64,000 nt of DNA, from the NCBI GenBank assembly GCA_963723165.1, contig CAVRPP010000007.1, forward strand, positions 133,513 through 197,512, read 5' to 3'. Below, piece after piece: positions 24,513 to 45,350 of this stretch; position 1 is the stretch's first letter, and each line of letters begins with the position of its first letter. The notes beneath the pieces were generated by a model, which was not told the DNA's origin, ran no database searches, and saw nothing but the letters and a program-made list of their open reading frames with translations. The stretch is from an uncultured Actinomycetota bacterium (GTDB lineage Bacteria; Actinomycetota; Acidimicrobiia; Spongiisociales; UBA4744). Position numbers and translations under genes: made by a program.

Positions 24513-24540
24513 TGTCCGGGGCGCATCGCAATGCGCCCCG
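24513..24540 (-). terminator. Hairpin terminator downstream of the cytochrome gene
   Basis: CCGGGGCGCAT-CGCA-ATGCGCCCCGG is followed on the minus strand by a T-rich tract. Confidence 0.45.
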
Positions 24541-24548
24541 GACGAGTC

Positions 24549-25649
24549 TCACGGCCCCGGCAAGACGTCGACGATGACGTCCTGATTGGCGGCCAGTTCC
24601 TCAGGGAGCACTTTGTCTGCCGTCAGGAACAGCGACTCGTTGCCGTGGCACGAGTCACATGAGGCGTTCTGCAGTGTGTTCCGCTGGATGTTGTGGGGTG
24701 TGGCCGGAGCAAATGTCGGCCGGGCATCGAACTCGGGGAGCAGGTTCGTCCCGTAGAACGAGAAGCTGTCCGGGTCGATGGGCACATGACGTACCACTGT
24801 GTAGCTCCAGGGTCGCTGCTCTGTGGGCTCGGCGTTCTTGCCGATGTAGAACGCCATTTCCGACGGTTCGATCTTGAAGTACGGCGTACCTGCATCCGAC
24901 GTCTGCACGTGGCAGCTGTAGCAGTTCTTGTAGTCGACCGAATGGCATACCTGACACGACAGGTTTGCCGAATGGATCGAGTGCTGCTGGTTGCCATCTG
25001 CCCCGCCTTCGACATCCGGGTGACAGTCGACGCATTCGACGGCCGCATCGTCGTAGCGATGCTCCTGTTCGGGAACGTCCCCATGCATCTCCGCAGCACC
25101 GTGACAGTCGAAACACGCCATGCCGCCGGGGTTGAAGTGGACGTCGGCGGGATACATACCGCCGTCTGCCGTCGCGTTCTTACCCTTGTACTCGTCGTTG
25201 ATCCGGCTCCCGTGGCAGCCCGTGCAGGTCAGGTTCATCGGTGGCGGATTCTTGAACGAGTGACCGTCAAGGAGTCCGCCCCCGGCGCTGGTCGGCCGGC
25301 TCACATGGCACTGGCCGCACGACGTGTGGCAACCGGCGCAATGATTCTCGAAGGCCAGCTCCAATCCGGGTGAGAGCTCCTCGCTGCCGGTCCTTTCGGC
25401 CAAAACGGTCAGGTAACCGTCGAGGGTCGAGTGCAGGCTCATCGCTTCGGTGGTGCTGATGTCGTTGTGGCAGCTGGCGCACGTCTCGATGGAGTTCGGG
25501 TCTCGGACCATGCCGGTGTGGGCGGCCTCTATCCCGTTCGCCTGGCCATCACCACCGTGGCAGGCGATACAGCCGAGAGCTCCGTGAGTTGTCTCAAAGA
25601 AAGCGTCGTCACTGACGAAAACCTGTTCCCATGCCTCTAACTGAGGCAC
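24549..25649 (-). CDS. Decaheme c-type cytochrome (no signal peptide of its own)
   Basis: Ten CxxCH motifs in 366 aa. GTG start preceded by GGAGG. In frame with the upstream lipoprotein heme gene across one TGA. Confidence 0.8.
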   Translation of the reverse strand: MPQLEAWEQVFVSDDAFFETTHGALGCIACHGGDGQANGIEAAHTGMVRDPNSIETCASCHNDISTTEAMSLHSTLDGYLTVLAERTGSEELSPGLELAFENHCAGCHTSCGQCHVSRPTSAGGGLLDGHSFKNPPPMNLTCTGCHGSRINDEYKGKNATADGGMYPADVHFNPGGMACFDCHGAAEMHGDVPEQEHRYDDAAVECVDCHPDVEGGADGNQQHSIHSANLSCQVCHSVDYKNCYSCHVQTSDAGTPYFKIEPSEMAFYIGKNAEPTEQRPWSYTVVRHVPIDPDSFSFYGTNLLPEFDARPTFAPATPHNIQRNTLQNASCDSCHGNESLFLTADKVLPEELAANQDVIVDVLPGP

Positions 25650-25658
25650 TGAACCTCC

Positions 25659-25964
25659 TCAGCCTTCACCTTCGCTGAGGGTCTCGGTGGCCACGGGTTC
25701 CACGGCCATGGCTTGCAGGGTGGCTTTGTCGGTGTGGCAGACGACACAACTGGCGTCGGCCGCCGCGGATGGGTCGGTAGTGGTCGTTGTCTGGACAGCA
25801 GTGGTAGTAGTTGTTTCCGGCGCCGTAGTCTCACTCGAAGTTGTCGTGTCATCGGCACCGCTGGTGCAACCGGCGGCCAGGAGGCCGACGAGCATCACGC
25901 CAAACACGGATAGGGTTGCTTTTCTCATCTCACCTCCTTTGGAGGAGGAGGGGCGCCGGAACAC
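25659..25964 (-). CDS. Lipoprotein with Thr-rich linker and one c-type heme motif (CVVCH)
   Basis: Start at MRKATLSVFGVMLVGLLAAGC (lipobox) with RBS AAGGAGGTG. Thr/Ser linker. One CxxCH. Confidence 0.7.
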   Translation of the reverse strand: MFRRPSSSKGGEMRKATLSVFGVMLVGLLAAGCTSGADDTTTSSETTAPETTTTTAVQTTTTTDPSAAADASCVVCHTDKATLQAMAVEPVATETLSEGEG

Positions 25965-25985
25965 CGACGCCCCTCTACCGGAGGG

Positions 25986-27065
25986 TTATCCGGTGACCGT
26001 CGGGTAGTCGGGGGCGGAGCTGAACGGCGTTTGGGCCAAGATGTCGACGTCGTCGGTCCAGCCCATCATTCCGAACTTCATGTTGATGACGTCGTAGCCG
26101 AGCAGTTTAAGGGCAGTAGCCGCTACCTGGCCGGTGTGGCCGGTGTAGCAGTACACCATGATTGGCTGATCGGTCGGCAGCGAAGGCAGGTTGGCCGTGT
26201 CGGCGATCTCTTTCCAGTAGATATTGATGGCCCCTTCGACATGCCCCAGGTCATACGACTCGGCGGCTCGCACGCTCACGACGAAGTAGTCGTTGGAATC
26301 GTCACCATCCGCCATGTTGTCGAACAGTGCCGACGCTCCCGCAACGGGCGTCCAGTCGGCCAGCATGGCCCGGGCGGAGGCGAGAGCAATGGCCGAAGCC
26401 TCGGTCTCACCGGTAGCCAGGACCGGAAGGTCGTAGGTTTCGGTGGCAACGGTTGGCTCGGTGACGGTCGGATAGCCGGGGGAAGTTGTGAAGGGGGTGG
26501 TTGCCACGACGTCGAGGTCGTTGGTCCAGCCCATCATCCCGTACTTCATGTTCTGGACGTCATAACCCAGCAACTTCAGCAACGTTGCGGCTACCTGGCC
26601 GGTGTGACCGGTGTAGCAGTAGACCACGATCGGTTGATCGGTGGGCAACTGGGCCAGGCTGTCCTCGTCGACGATGGTTTTCCAGGGGATGTTGATGGCC
26701 CCTTCGATATGACCGAGCGCGTAGGCGTCGGGGGCCCGCACGCTGACGACGAACGGATCGTTGGAGTCGTCACCGTCGGTCAGGTTCTCGTAGAGGGCGT
26801 CGGCGCTGATGACCGGCTTCCACTCAGTCAGCACAGCATTGACATGCTCGGCGAGCACCAGCTCCTCGGCGACCATGGCCTCCGTGGTGGTCGGCGCTTC
26901 GGTGGTCGTCGTGGCTTCGGTGGTCGTCGTTGTGGCCTCGGTTGTGGCCGGCGCCGCAGTAGTGGTGGTCTCTTCAGCCGCGTCGTCGGCACATCCCGCC
27001 AGCACGATCATGCTGAATACCGTGAACACCGCCAGCAGCTTGAAGACTTTGGTTCTCCGTGACAT
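25986..27065 (-). CDS. Tandem-rhodanese lipoprotein (two rhodanese domains, each with a CYTGH active-site loop)
   Basis: Lipobox VLAGC with RBS AAGGAG. Thr-rich linker. Two duplicated domains of about 150 aa with VYCYTGHTGQ. Confidence 0.85.
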   Translation of the reverse strand: MSRRTKVFKLLAVFTVFSMIVLAGCADDAAEETTTTAAPATTEATTTTTEATTTTEAPTTTEAMVAEELVLAEHVNAVLTEWKPVISADALYENLTDGDDSNDPFVVSVRAPDAYALGHIEGAINIPWKTIVDEDSLAQLPTDQPIVVYCYTGHTGQVAATLLKLLGYDVQNMKYGMMGWTNDLDVVATTPFTTSPGYPTVTEPTVATETYDLPVLATGETEASAIALASARAMLADWTPVAGASALFDNMADGDDSNDYFVVSVRAAESYDLGHVEGAINIYWKEIADTANLPSLPTDQPIMVYCYTGHTGQVAATALKLLGYDVINMKFGMMGWTDDVDILAQTPFSSAPDYPTVTG

Positions 27066-27076
27066 CAGGTTGCTCC

Positions 27077-27094
27077 TTGTGAAACAATTCACAA
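27077..27094 (-). promoter_or_regulatory. Perfect CRP/GlxR-type palindrome TTGTGAA-TTGT-TTCACAA (TGTGA-N6-TCACA) abutting the rhodanese RBS
   Basis: Seen directly in the sequence. The AAGGAG RBS overlaps its 3' end and the ATG follows 12 nt later. Confidence 0.45.
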
Positions 27095-27206: not shown

Positions 27207-30070
27207 TCAGAGCTCAGGACCTATGAGCAGACCGGCCAACCTTGCCGCGGCTGCGCCGGGCCGGGCCAACCAGCGGCTCTGAAAGCAGTCGGTAATGCGC
27301 CACCCGGCTCGGCGGAGAGCCTGATGACGTTCGATGTGCGCCTCAGGTCCGGAAGGATGGACGACGCACTCAACTCCGATGGCCCCCCTTTCGTCCCCGA
27401 CGGAGAGGTCTACGTGCCATCCGGCCACCGGGTAGTTGGCGGTCACAGCCACCGAATAGGTGTCGAGTTCGCCTGCCAGGTCGGCGATCCACTCGACCGG
27501 GCGGGCGGATGCCTGGGAAGGAAGAGGCGGGTGGTGAGCGTGCCTCAGGTAGTCGGCCAGGAGACCCTTGGGGAGATGGTCGGGTTCCAGTGATGTGACG
27601 AGAATCATCTGGGTCCGTGCCCGGGTCACCAGCACATTGAGAAGATTCGGGTCCTCCACGAACCGCAGAGAATTTCCGAGGTCCTCTTTCGAGATCGTGA
27701 GCGAGGCGATCACTACGTCCCGTTCGTTTCCCTGGAAGGCATGAACTGTGCCGGTCCGCAACCCGAGCCGCTCCAGCTCCTCGGGGCCGAAATCGTCGAG
27801 GACGGCTTCCTCGAGGGCGTCGGCCTGAGCCCGAAAAGGGGTGATAACACCGACGCTCGTAGCGCCGGCCGCCCGGGCGTTCCGGATTTCCTCCAACACA
27901 GCCTCTACTTCTGCCCGATTGACTCCGCTTGTGTCCCGGTTCCCGCGCGGGTACGCACGCGAATGGCATCCCGGGTTTCCGTTGCAGGGTGCTGGGTCAT
28001 ATATCGCAACTTCCCGTCGTAGAAGGTTCGATCCGAGAAGGCGATGATGTGCGGCACCGAGCGGAAATGTTCATCGAGCCAGGTGACCGGTGCCGCTCCG
28101 GCGGCCGCGTCGAACAGGCTATTGCGGCGCACATCGAGCAGGCGGGCCAGGTCACCGTCGATCCCGTGAGCCCGGGCAGCGGTGGCGCCGGCCTCGTCGG
28201 CGACGAAGGAAACGTGACGGAGCTGGCGCGGGTCCCCAACAATCAAGGCCCGTCGAGCTCTGGCTAATGCTGGAGCGGCGCGGGTCTGATCGATTTGGCT
28301 CGCCTCGTCGAATATGACCACGTCGAAAATCCCGGGCGTTGTGGGAAGGGTGTCATCGATCTCGGTCAGTGTGCCCAGCCAGAGCGGGAGCACATCCAGG
28401 AAGTGATCTCCCGACAGTTCTCGGAGGGCACGGCGGCGTTGCACCCGACCGGCGCGAAGCGCTGAGGCCAGCGCCGCAACGGCTCTTGTCGACGTGCGAC
28501 GGTTGTTCCGGCGGGCCCGGCGACGGGCTTCGATCGCTTCACCGGCCGCGATTCGCCAACTCGATTCGGCTTGTTCGAGTTGCCGCCATAGAGGTTCGAG
28601 GGTGAGACCTCCACCGGTCAGCCCGTCCCGCACCGCAGCTTCTGCGTGGGCCGCATCAATCGCGACGGCAATCTGTTCGAGGGTGGCATCGGAGCGGGCG
28701 CCCACCCTCCGGCGAAGCTGTTTTTCGGCCTGGTTCCCGCGGAATCGGGCGAGCAGGCCCCGTGTCCCTGTTGCCCTGGTATGCAAGCGATCGACCTCCT
28801 GCAGGTCGGTGTCCTCGTCGAGCACTCCGGGGGCCTGCGAGGTCATCAAGGCGAGAGCATCTCTCCGTTCGAGGCCCTCCGAGAAGGCCTGTTCCCTTGC
28901 CAGCAAGTCTTGAAGCCGCGCCCGCACGCCGTCGGCCTGCCGCCGGGCCTTCGCCAGTCCCTCCTCGAGCTGGTTGAGTTCTGCAGGCGAATACGGACGT
29001 GCCATGCCTTCCGAGAGCTCGGCCGCAGCGGAGGCACGATGCTCGCGACGGCCGAATCGGATGAAGCGCGGCCCCGGGTTACGTTCCAGGAGATCGGCTA
29101 TGACATCCGCGGCGTAGGTGGACTGGGTGGCGACGAGGACCGTGTGCCCGCGTCCGACCTCATCGATGGCAGCTGCAGCAACCAGGTGGCTCTTGCCGGT
29201 TCCCGGCGGACCGGAAACGACCGTGATGTTTTCGTGACGCGCCCTCGCCAGCGCTTCTCGCTGGCGGGCGTTGAGCGGCAAAGGGGATTCAATCGGCAAC
29301 TCGGCGCCGTGGGGCTCATCATCACGAGATGCGTACAGTGTCTCGAAGGCAGTGCCGGAAAGGTTTTCGGAAGCCCAGCCGAGGAGCGCTCCGCGTACAT
29401 TCGGCGCTGCAGTATCACGAACGGTGTAGACCGCAGCTCCCGCAAACACTCGGAGTCCTGGTCCTTGTCGCCCGGCCATAGGGTCGGCGTCGGGACCTTC
29501 GACTCGCGCAGGCGGCAGGCCCGCCTTGTTCACCGCCTCGGCAATCCAGGACTGGAATCGTGGCATACGGTCGAGCAGTTCCCGGCCGGCAGGTACGGCG
29601 CCACCCCCAAACGGGTCCGATGAGTTCTCCAGCGGTTCACGGGCGGTGTCGTCGAAAAGCGCGTCGGGCATTTCAACATCGCCTTCATGGATCACGCGAT
29701 GGGTCCCCGGTCCCCACCGCTGCAGCCGGATCGGCGCGGACAGCAACGGCACACAGAAACGCGTCGGTTTGTCGTGGAAGTTGGCCGAGCCGCACAAGAA
29801 AAGCCATCCGATCCGGAGCAAACGTTCCGCCGGGTGCAACGAGTCGATGGCCGCGAGTCGGTTCAGGTCGCGATTGGCTACCTCGCGCAGCGTCGACGAA
29901 CCGTCCGTGACAACCGGTTCAACGAGGGAGGGGCGCCAGCCGAGGTAGGCGAATTCACTGCTCCGGTGGACGACGTCGAACACCTTCCGACCTTCCGGGG
30001 CGAGATCGGCGAGATAGCGGAGTATGTCCTGGGAGCCGGCCATTAGATGCGCATTCTTGGATCGGACCAT
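27207..30070 (-). pseudogene. SF1 (Upf1-like, AAA_11/AAA_12) DNA helicase with C-terminal DUF559 endonuclease-like domain, interrupted by a frameshift near 27940-27990
   Basis: ORF 27905..30070 carries Walker A GPPGTGKSH through FYDGKL. The downstream frame reads ...SGVNRAEVEAVLEEIRNARAAGATSVGVITPFRAQ...VHAFQGNERD...NVLVTRAR, then the DUF559 motif GW.VD....AIGVECVVH.....GWRI. Confidence 0.75.
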
Positions 30071-44306: not shown

Positions 44307-45350
44307 ATGGCGGAGAAACTGACTGAGTTCTCGCACGGCAGCGGCTGAGCATGCAAGCTCGGTCCTGACGAGCTGGCGCAGGTCTTGCGCCCTTTGCACA
44401 ACCATCCAACCACCCTCCACCCCGACCTGGTCGTAGGTTTGTCCTCCGGGGACGATGCCGGGGTCCTACGGCTGCCCGACGGACGCCTGATGGTGCAGAC
44501 GGTTGACTACTTCACGCCGGTGGTCGACGACCCTGGCGATTGGGGCCGGATCGCCGCGGCCAATGCACTGTCCGATGTCTACGCCATGGGAGGGACGCCA
44601 TCAACCGCTCTGCAGCTGATCGGTTGGCCCCGCGGGACGCTGTCCTTTGATCTGCTCGGTGAGGTGATTCTCGGTGGAATCGGCAAACTCGAGGAAGCCG
44701 GCTGTCTGCTGATCGGTGGCCACTCGATCGATTCCCCCGAACCAACATACGGCTTTGCGGTCACCGGATTTGTCGAACCGGATCATCTCACTACCAACGG
44801 GGGAGCCCGTACCGGCGACCGCCTCGTCCTCACCAAGCCGATCGGTACCGGGATCATTTCGACCGCCATCAAGAACCACAAGGCCAATCCCGGGATGATC
44901 GTTGAAGCGATCAGCGTCATGGCAGAGCTCAATGCGGGGGCGGCCCGGGCAATGTCCGCCGTGGGTGTCAACGGGGCGACGGACGTGACGGGCTTCGGGC
45001 TGCTCGGCCACCTCGGAGAGATGGTGGCCGCCAGCGGAGTGGCCGCAATCATCCGGCACGCCGCCGTGCCGCTGATCGACGGCGTACGCGACCTGGCCCT
45101 GGCCGGTGTGGTCCCTGGAGGCACGGCACGGAACCTGGTTGCTGTGGAACGGTTTACCGATTTCGGGAACCTCAACGCGGCCGATCAGCTGATCCTGGCC
45201 GACGCTCAGACCAGTGGCGGCCTCCTGATTTCGGTGGCCGCCGACCGGACCCGCGATCTGGTCGAAGCACTGACCAGCGAGGGGACGAGAACCGCGGCCG
45301 TCGTTGGCGAGATTACCGGGGATCAACCCGGCACGATCGCCGTCCGCTAG
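44307..45350 (+). CDS. selD: Selenide, water dikinase (selenophosphate synthetase), selenocysteine-containing form
   Basis: ATG after GGAAAGGAGG. Reads MAEKLTEFSHGSG-U(TGA 44346..44348)-ACKLGPDEL and continues in frame into ORF 44385..45350. A hairpin AGCUCG-GUCCUGA-CGAGCU starts 8-9 nt after the UGA. Confidence 0.9.

Follow-up and report, generated by a model that had tools for sequence, protein, structure and literature searches.

A predicted eleven-heme selenoprotein lipoprotein encoded across an in-frame UGA, and its rhodanese partner, in an uncultured Acidimicrobiia bacterium

Do two adjacent open reading frames (ORFs) of an uncultured Acidimicrobiia bacterium, separated by a single in-frame TGA, encode two cytochromes, or a single one in which the UGA is decoded? 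The question is raised by a locus on contig CAVRPP010000007.1, within a 64,000-nucleotide stretch that was analysed as a whole and is called the window below. All parts of the split cytochrome gene were confirmed on the minus strand, with 11 CxxCH heme motifs in total in one frame. An initial annotation of the locus had proposed either one 11-heme lipoprotein of about 470 amino acids with a decoded UGA, or a nonsense mutation or sequencing error. Our comparison with relatives makes it very probable that the two ORFs form one gene for a membrane-anchored selenoprotein lipoprotein of 459 amino acids and 11 hemes, whose parts are laid out as follows.

25964..25659, minus strand: maximal first ORF, starting at GTG 25964
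25662..25928, minus strand: N-terminal module from ATG 25928, with signal peptide, lipobox, Thr/Ser-rich linker and one CxxCH, ending ...LSEGEG
25661..25659, minus strand: in-frame TGA, the proposed selenocysteine codon U90, placed by orthologue comparison
25649..25631, minus strand: hairpin (G)UGCCUC-AGUUA-GAGGCA(U), resembling a selenocysteine insertion sequence (SECIS), recognised by fold, covariation and synonymous-codon constraint
24552..25658, minus strand: C-terminal decaheme module, starting GGSVPQLEAWEQ, with ten CxxCH (residues 120-428) and lacking its own signal peptide
24551..24549, minus strand: TGA stop codon of the decaheme module

The preferred start is ATG 25928, which is preceded by the Shine-Dalgarno sequence AAAGGAGG and opens a signal peptide, MRKATLSVFGVMLVGLLAAG-C21, that ends in the lipobox LAAG-C21 at 25868..25866. 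Heme motif 1, CVVCH, occupies residues 61-65 (25748..25734, minus strand), and the N-terminal part then runs to ...TETLSEGEG before the TGA; this 89-amino-acid product is identical to a database ORF (P0211). Beyond the TGA the frame continues GGS-V(GTG 25649)-PQLEAWEQVF.... Counted from ATG 25928, the read-through product therefore has 459 residues rather than about 470, with the UGA as codon 90 and all 11 CxxCH. Its computed mass is 46.4 kDa as the mature apoprotein and about 53 kDa with hemes, or about 4.8 kDa per heme. Such a signal peptide, with its lipobox Cys, marks the protein as a bacterial lipoprotein, lipidation itself being predicted. The first ORF thus has all that was initially ascribed to it, namely a lipoprotein signal peptide, a Thr-rich linker, one CxxCH and SEGEG followed by TGA, and the reported lack of a signal peptide in the decaheme part likewise stands.

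Conservation of the UGA and of the hairpin that follows it

The initial annotation had pointed to orthologues as one way to decide what this codon is. The fused protein retrieved 1774 relatives from the sequence databases. When each GTDB species was represented by one genome, 482 genomes proved to contain a relative; 80 loci were fetched from these, 78 of them with upstream DNA. The codon aligned to the window TGA was TGA in 76 of these 78 loci, TGG in one (L063) and TTG in one (L057), and never TAA or TAG. The TGA-bearing loci come from independent species-level genomes of Acidimicrobiia and Chloroflexota, and across all 78 loci the peptide LSEGEG-x-GGS(V/L)P(P/Q)LEAWEKV is kept over the codon in the same frame. 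The in-frame UGA is therefore conserved with coding sequence maintained on both of its flanks. The terminal stop codons of the same genes served as an internal control (n = 75) and were TAG in 39, TAA in 22 and TGA in 14. Genuine terminators are thus TGA in 19% of these genes, as against 76 of 76 for the internal stop codon, and we conclude that the internal TGA is not an ordinary terminator. The arrangement GEG-TGA-GGSVP extends further, to one locus from Phycisphaerae (L083) and one from Myxococcota (L084).

The same cut runs through the protein databases. Among the best 120 of the 1774 relatives nearly all are 355-375 amino acids long and begin exactly at the start of the window's second ORF, while a search with a profile of the junction returned ORFs of 35-111 amino acids ending ...GEG and nothing else, and hence no Cys form among close relatives. 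Altogether, hundreds of database ORFs are cut at precisely the TGA position. Single genomes in this group call for some caution: in the long-read metagenome-assembled genomes (MAGs) closest to the window, the cytochrome frame breaks after 208 amino acids (L007) or the rhodanese matches of the neighbouring gene are divided between frames (L001), and both breaks are probably assembly indel errors.

Directly 3′ of the UGA lies a stem-loop that is under selection at the level of RNA. Its core of five base pairs joins 25647..25643 to 25637..25633, and a lower stem reaches to about 25654..25625. The predicted fold (-15.5 kcal/mol, z = -3.5) was matched in stability by none of 200 shuffled sequences. 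When 77 TGA loci were aligned in register (stem columns 24-28 with 34-38), the core stem was intact in 76 of them, with compensatory double changes at three pairs (GC to CG or the reverse in 14 sequences, UA to GC, and CG to GC) and with loop positions G30 and U32 invariant. In this register 91% of stem cells are paired, a share that falls to 37-62% once the 3′ arm is displaced by 1-3 columns; the observed covariation was reached in 0 of 500 shuffles, and RNAalifold independently recovers the same stem. Synonymous codon use, measured only among sequences that share the majority amino acid, tells the same story. Codons inside the hairpin are nearly fixed (Pro CCT 76/77, Pro CCG 60/60, Leu TTG 56/62, Glu GAG 75/75, Ala GCA 55/58), so that synonymous entropy collapses at codons +5 to +9 and is about 0 bits at CCT, CCG, GAG and GCA, compared with 0.9-2.0 bits for Gly, Glu, Val, Ser and Lys codons in the immediate flanks. 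The Myxococcota locus encodes different amino acids here (PEVPA), yet its stem is rebuilt as GUGCCGG/CCGGCAC with full compensation; in the Leu variant, L057, the stem is lost.

Bacterial SECIS elements of the Escherichia coli fdhF type are stem-loops within the coding sequence, about 10 nucleotides past the UGA, with a conserved G and U in the loop. The cytochrome hairpin shares this position and the conserved G and U of the apical loop; it differs in having a short stem (5-7 base pairs) and a loop of 5 nucleotides, and SelB binding is putative. A search of the whole window against Rfam at gathering thresholds gave no match, so the hairpin belongs to no catalogued SECIS or other RNA family. 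The small hairpin seen initially is therefore real and conserved, although its distance from the UGA has to be revised from 11-12 to 9-11 nucleotides, with the apical loop beginning 16 nucleotides past the UGA. A larger stem, CCUCAG...CUGAGG, that had been drawn across the UGA itself was rejected as a conserved element: it needs the codons CTC-AGC, which are present only in the closest Acidimicrobiia relatives.

A second gene of the window bears on how its UGA codons are read.

44307..45350, plus strand: selD (selenide, water dikinase), 387.5 bits on TIGR00476 with U replaced by C (cut-off 125)

The presence of selD had been noted before, and the gene proves to be a selenoprotein gene itself. 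Its own in-frame TGA, at 44346..44348, falls on the catalytic Cys/Sec position (HGSG-U-ACKLGP); to judge by this codon, the genome very probably decodes UGA as selenocysteine, and an apparatus for doing so should exist. ORF callers give selD only from 44385 onward. A hairpin, AGCUCG-GUCCUGA-CGAGCU, stands 7 nucleotides past the selD UGA; shuffled sequences fold just as stably (z = 0.02).

Covalent attachment of c-type heme requires export from the cytoplasm, and the export signal is found only in the N-terminal part: at least 58 of 74 orthologues have a recognisable lipobox or signal peptide there, the signal peptide of three being of the ordinary kind, without a lipobox. Taken together, these facts point to one exported chain. 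The ten-heme ORF had been proposed to begin at a GTG preceded by GGAGG. That GTG, at 25649, is indeed in frame; as a start codon it is not conserved, being GTG or TTG at 49 of 74 orthologous loci and GTC, CTG or TTA at the other 25, and the GGAGG before it consists of the codons of the conserved Gly-Gly that follows the TGA.

Where the UGA is replaced, the gene is whole: the TGG, TTG and Cys variants are continuous full-length ORFs. Exhaustive searching of 1.84 billion cluster representatives with HMMER brought up 584 matches, and Cys is aligned to U90 in many distant full-length relatives, for example P0278 (DPGEG-C-GGTVPEMEAWE), P0259, P0270, P0287, P0305 and P0332, with Cys-Cys at the site in P0272 and P0277. 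Homologues with Cys at the selenocysteine position thus exist, although they are rare and distant, and relatives of one distant Cys form are mostly split again at the site. Other distant full-length relatives have Trp, Leu, His, Tyr or Met there. The Trp of P0071 was considered as an artefact of translating TGA with genetic code 4, which was rejected because the codon really is TGG; in P0241, P0246, P0253 and others the Trp may still have that origin. In the Trp variant P0071 and in the Leu variant P0091 the GEG-x-GG motif is degraded, and no rhodanese gene was found within 6 kb of L057 (the locus of P0091) or L063, both of which suggest that Trp and Leu mark loss of a selenocysteine-dependent function rather than equivalence. 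The Cys-form locus L082 (P0278; 9714..13431, minus strand) has in its neighbourhood a fusion gene for cytochrome c assembly of the ResB/CcsA type, which is very large (>1384 amino acids).

How far do other explanations account for these data? A nonsense mutation, pseudogene lesion or sequencing or assembly error in this genome could be produced by a single-base change, and assembly frameshifts do occur in related MAG loci (L007, at 208 amino acids). The same TGA in 76 of 78 Acidimicrobiia and Chloroflexota genomes, its presence in Phycisphaerae and Myxococcota, and the hundreds of ORFs cut there rule this explanation out for all practical purposes and leave it a probability close to nil. It is also highly improbable that there are two genes, one for an 89-amino-acid monoheme lipoprotein and one for a decaheme protein re-initiated at GTG or TTG and coupled through GGAGG. 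Gene callers do annotate the locus in this way, a GTG or TTG lies within three codons at every locus, and a purine-rich GGNGG stands upstream. Such a downstream product would, however, have no signal peptide although its hemes need export; the proposed GTG is not a start codon at 25 of 74 loci; the stop would be TGA at 76 of 76 loci as against 19% at gene ends; and the frame is always kept, the peptide is conserved over the junction, and the TGG, TTG and Cys variants run straight through it. Slightly less improbable, and still a minor contender, is read-through without selenocysteine, by near-cognate insertion of Trp, Cys or Arg with the hairpin as a read-through stimulator. This explanation would fit the natural TGG variants (L063, P0071 and possibly several distant representatives) and the failure to find selA, selB or a selenocysteine tRNA (tRNA-Sec) in the window. 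Opposed to it are the UGA at the catalytic position of selD, a hairpin with the geometry of a bacterial SECIS (the loop 16 nucleotides after the UGA, with invariant G and U), the Cys homologues that complete the classic Sec/Cys signature, and the degraded motif and missing rhodanese gene of the Trp and Leu variants.

Several observations do weigh against selenocysteine at this site. In NCBIfam scans of 28 ORFs in the 64-kb window selD was found and selA and selB were not, and ARAGORN found no tRNA gene, tRNA-Sec included, in the window; selD alone can also serve selenouridine synthesis, though its own UGA argues for selenocysteine decoding. The sense replacements among close relatives are Trp and Leu only, Cys being confined to distant clades. 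The hairpin, moreover, coincides with the codons of a conserved peptide, VPPLEAW, and selection on the protein accounts for some of its nucleotide conservation. Nevertheless, the continuous variants, the non-conserved start and the selD selenoprotein gene, together with the conservation of TGA and of the hairpin, make selenocysteine insertion by far the best reading of the locus, and the one 11-heme lipoprotein with a decoded UGA that had been suggested initially is well supported by the exclusive use of TGA, the hairpin, selD and the Cys homologues.

Heme architecture and relation to known cytochromes

By its 11 CxxCH motifs, its conserved His residues and its Pfam matches the protein is a multiheme c-type cytochrome. 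The Pfam domains are generic multiheme ones, PF22113 (50 bits, cut-off 30), PF14522 (42 bits) and PF14537 (33 bits), and the matches include MtrC/MtrF pentaheme domains. Across 150 sequences every Cys lies within a CxxCH motif and ten His residues outside the motifs are conserved, all of them in the decaheme module; the N-terminal module has no conserved His or Met. With 11 hemes and ten such His residues, one heme must have a sixth ligand other than His, or none. U90 itself is found about 25 residues past the CxxCH of heme 1, in the GEG-U-GG loop between hemes 1 and 2. Some relatives depart from this architecture: P0092, P0110, P0116, L016, L027 and L049 have long C-terminal extensions, 12-18 CxxCH and a C-terminal transmembrane helix, and such extended variants carry an ordinary signal peptide instead of the lipobox.

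The protein fits none of the catalogued families. No NCBIfam model reached its cut-off (the best was ExtM, 29.6 bits against a cut-off of 800), and NF040886 (ExtKL), NF041027 (the GSU2204 family) and TIGR04315 (octaheme tetrathionate reductase, OTR) gave no match even at E <= 1. Searching the PDB sequence set with the protein and with a 32-sequence profile gave only weak local matches to HAO-type octahemes and octaheme nitrite reductases. An AlphaFold2 model of the full-length Leu variant P0091 was poor (predicted local distance difference test, pLDDT, 56.6), and a Foldseek search with it was uninformative. According to a 2026 review of the prokaryotic selenoproteome there are three heme-related selenoprotein families only, ExtKL, the GSU2204 family and OTR-type octahemes (PMC13188914), and in our literature searches we found no published account of the family to which the window protein belongs.

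The most instructive comparison is with MccSep/ExtKL (GSU2937-2936) of Geobacter sulfurreducens, a selenocysteine-containing pentaheme polysulfide reductase from the ext cluster, which also encodes the rhodanese lipoprotein ExtH (PMC13510729; PMC5877670). Not until 2026, with MccSep, was it established that multiheme cytochrome selenoproteins are true enzymes; according to Mihara et al. MccSep reduces polysulfide and, more weakly, selenite via selenocysteine and a His/Cys heme (PMC13510729). Both proteins are multiheme c-type cytochromes annotated as two ORFs through an in-frame UGA, have a SECIS-like hairpin directly after it and are exported from the cytoplasm; both place selenocysteine in a Gly-containing loop (DGUP in MccSep, GEGUGG here), have a rhodanese-family gene in the cluster, and occur mostly in selenocysteine forms with a minority of Cys forms. 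They differ in that the window protein has 11 hemes rather than 5 and lacks a conserved heme-ligating Cys, that U90 is near the N-terminus between hemes 1 and 2 while the selenocysteine of MccSep is in a C-terminal immunoglobulin-like domain, and that the window protein is a lipoprotein whose family is found mainly in Actinomycetota and Chloroflexota, MccSep being found in Desulfobacterota and Nitrospirota. The MccSep chains 9wt8 and 9wt9, which were in the PDB sequence set, were matched by neither the protein nor the profile, and with no match to the ExtKL model, 11 CxxCH and selenocysteine at residue 90 of 459 the protein is not a member of that family.

The closest fold to the decaheme module appears to be OTR, which has several hemes, serves respiration and splits an S-S bond. 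The active-site heme of OTR was reportedly described as Lys-ligated by Mowat and colleagues in 2004. OTR of Shewanella oneidensis (PDB 1sp3) shares 18% identity with the window protein, has 8 hemes rather than 11, and is soluble and periplasmic, without an N-terminal module of one heme plus selenocysteine; 1sp3 was found by neither sequence nor profile search, and the protein does not reach the TIGR04315 cut-off or have the eight hemes of that family. The OTR-type octahemes themselves include GenBank-annotated selenoproteins (PMC13188914).

Two further systems offer partial parallels. TsdA and SoxAX have a chalcogen side chain at or near a heme that does S-S chemistry and might be a model if U90 ligates a heme; unlike the window protein they carry two hemes and a Cys ligand and lack selenocysteine, and no homology was detected. 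In Wolinella succinogenes the periplasmic, rhodanese-like polysulfide-sulfur transferase Sud feeds the polysulfide reductase Psr. Here too an extracytoplasmic rhodanese carrier is combined with a respiratory sulfur reductase, and genes of NrfD/PsrC and PsrB/NrfC type stand beside the Chloroflexota copies of the cytochrome; the catalytic subunit of Psr, however, is a molybdopterin enzyme and not a multiheme selenoprotein.

The rhodanese partner and a possible function

The main clue to function, absent from the initial annotation, is a conserved rhodanese partner. In the window it is encoded directly upstream of the cytochrome on the same strand; one predicted RNA structure lies between the two genes and another follows the cytochrome.

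25986..27092, minus strand: tandem-rhodanese lipoprotein gene (maximal ORF), Pfam PF00581 at 111 bits in two stretches, signal peptide ...MIVLAGC
25936..25984, minus strand: GC-rich intergenic hairpin lying past the rhodanese stop and ahead of the cytochrome start, -37.1 kcal/mol, z = -4.5, 0 of 200 shuffles as stable
24515..24543, minus strand: intrinsic-terminator-like hairpin with a 13-bp GC-rich stem, loop UUGC and U-rich tail, -33.1 kcal/mol, z = -4.7, 0 of 200 shuffles as stable

Both rhodanese domains carry the active-site loop CYTGHTG (Cys159 and Cys315). Of about 62 loci whose upstream DNA is long enough, 58 have a tandem-rhodanese homologue upstream on the same strand; some of these neighbours have four domains or are duplicated, and in a few loci the gene is downstream of the cytochrome. 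A rhodanese-domain gene also follows the cytochrome immediately in the Phycisphaerae and Myxococcota loci, and in P0253 a rhodanese domain is fused to the N-terminus of the cytochrome itself.

Beyond this pair the neighbourhoods vary. In Chloroflexota (L019, L057, L064, L018 and others) conserved neighbours occur 1.5-4.5 kb upstream of the cytochrome, namely a Tat-signal NrfC-like 4Fe-4S dicluster protein (27 loci), NrfD-family membrane proteins (16 and 9 loci), a cytochrome b561/multiheme fusion (10 loci), and regulators of the LysR (20 loci) and PadR-DUF4388 (18 loci) types. By their predicted products the NrfC, NrfD and cytochrome b genes would form a quinol-oxidising electron-input module.

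From the near-universal rhodanese partner, the P0253 fusion, the NrfC/NrfD neighbours and the MccSep precedent we derive a sulfur or chalcogen role, and we tentatively propose, with a little less than even confidence, that the protein may be a selenocysteine-dependent respiratory or detoxifying reductase for polysulfide, tetrathionate or related chalcogen substrates. Whatever the function, SelB and Sec-tRNA(Sec) would read the UGA as selenocysteine U90, and the N-terminal lipoprotein signal peptide would export the whole chain via the Sec translocon, with lipidation of Cys21. The eleven hemes would be attached outside the cytoplasmic membrane, the enzyme being tethered by its Thr-rich linker; where selenocysteine insertion failed, only the 89-amino-acid monoheme lipoprotein would be made. 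In the proposed reductase the OTR-like ten-heme module would act as an electron wire, fed from menaquinol in Chloroflexota by the products of the NrfC/NrfD-type genes, and U90, in a flexible GEG-U-GG loop by heme 1, would be the catalytic nucleophile. The tandem rhodanese, with its two active-site Cys, would collect sulfane sulfur from polysulfide, thiosulfate, tetrathionate, or selenium or tellurium analogues as a persulfide and pass it to the U90 selenolate, and the resulting Se-S adduct would then be cleaved reductively by heme electrons.

A more speculative extension, which we regard as unlikely though worth stating, is that U90 might be the sixth axial ligand of heme 1, or stand directly over a five-coordinate heme, creating a heme-selenium catalytic centre. 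We know of no natural precedent for such a centre. Ligation of heme 1 by U90 would fit a protein with 11 hemes whose ten conserved His are all in the decaheme module and whose N-terminal module has no conserved His or Met.

The competing view of function keeps the selenoprotein and changes its task: the cytochrome might be an extracellular electron conduit to metal or an electrode, or an oxidising enzyme for thiosulfate or sulfide in the manner of TsdA, with selenocysteine as a heme ligand or redox switch. Low peptide-to-heme ("peptide-minimised") values are characteristic of electron-transfer proteins rather than enzymes, and its roughly 4.8 kDa per heme puts the window protein in that range (PMC7096707). 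The matches to MtrC/MtrF pentaheme domains, the relatives with C-terminal extensions, 17-18 hemes and a membrane anchor, and the one heme left without a His sixth ligand by ten conserved His for 11 hemes would all suit this view too. The reductase proposal has further difficulties in that there is no conserved non-motif Cys to ligate a heme, unlike in MccSep and TsdA, so that the MccSep mechanism is not directly transferable, and in that neither quinol-dehydrogenase genes nor any of the conserved Chloroflexota neighbours are adjacent to the pair in the window. In addition, no rhodanese gene occurs within 6 kb of L082, the sole Cys-form locus examined. What speaks against a conduit or oxidase is the near-universal rhodanese partner, gene fusions included, which indicates handling of sulfane sulfur or selenium; the closest fold is that of an S-S-cleaving enzyme, and the sole characterised selenocysteine multiheme cytochrome is a polysulfide reductase (PMC13510729). 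We accordingly give the conduit or oxidase view a clearly smaller, though appreciable, share of the probability than a reductase acting on sulfur or related chalcogen compounds.

Whichever function applies, the sequences appear to define a second family of selenocysteine multiheme cytochromes tied to rhodanese, without sequence similarity to MccSep, which is widespread and apparently uncatalogued. At least 482 species-level genomes and hundreds of metagenomic clusters contain relatives. Of those examined, nearly all are wrongly annotated, as a tiny "hypothetical" ORF followed by a cytochrome that lacks a signal peptide, the NCBI names being "hypothetical protein" or "multiheme c-type cytochrome" at truncated length. 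Recognising the family would correct these annotations and add a family to the prokaryotic selenoproteome. The MccSep-like design of a heme wire, one selenocysteine and a rhodanese partner would thus recur in a protein with no detectable similarity to MccSep, providing a second system in which to ask why heme-based S-S chemistry recruits selenium and a candidate enzyme by which abundant, uncultured bacteria of sediments might respire sulfur, polysulfide, tetrathionate or selenite. Should the heme-selenium centre prove real, the family would be a second, independently evolved class of selenocysteine-dependent multiheme sulfur/selenium respiratory reductases, widespread in sediment Chloroflexota, Acidimicrobiia, Planctomycetota and Myxococcota and with a hitherto unrecognised role in sulfur and selenium cycling.

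Some smaller features of the locus remain to be described. In the predicted fold of the intergenic hairpin, the outer stem pairs CCUCC with the Shine-Dalgarno GGAGG of the cytochrome gene, and the structure may control translation or mRNA processing. The terminator-like hairpin closes the rhodanese-cytochrome unit, with a convergent prephenate dehydrogenase gene opposite. Unrelated housekeeping genes flank the pair: the prephenate dehydrogenase gene just named and, at the opposite end, helicase-like ORFs. Two adjacent ORFs among the latter, 27207..27899 and 27905..30070 (both minus strand), share their matches to helicase-type anti-phage families (ProA, PLuB, IGHMBP2-like); TAG at 27907..27905 closes the first, the second starts at 27899 in a different frame, and together they may represent a helicase gene that is split or frameshifted, or else a fault of the assembly. 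Lastly, many truncated decaheme ORFs (P0013, P0023, P0025 and others) bear the JGI label "thiosulfate/3-mercaptopyruvate sulfurtransferase" without containing a rhodanese domain, a label probably propagated from rhodanese-cytochrome fusions.

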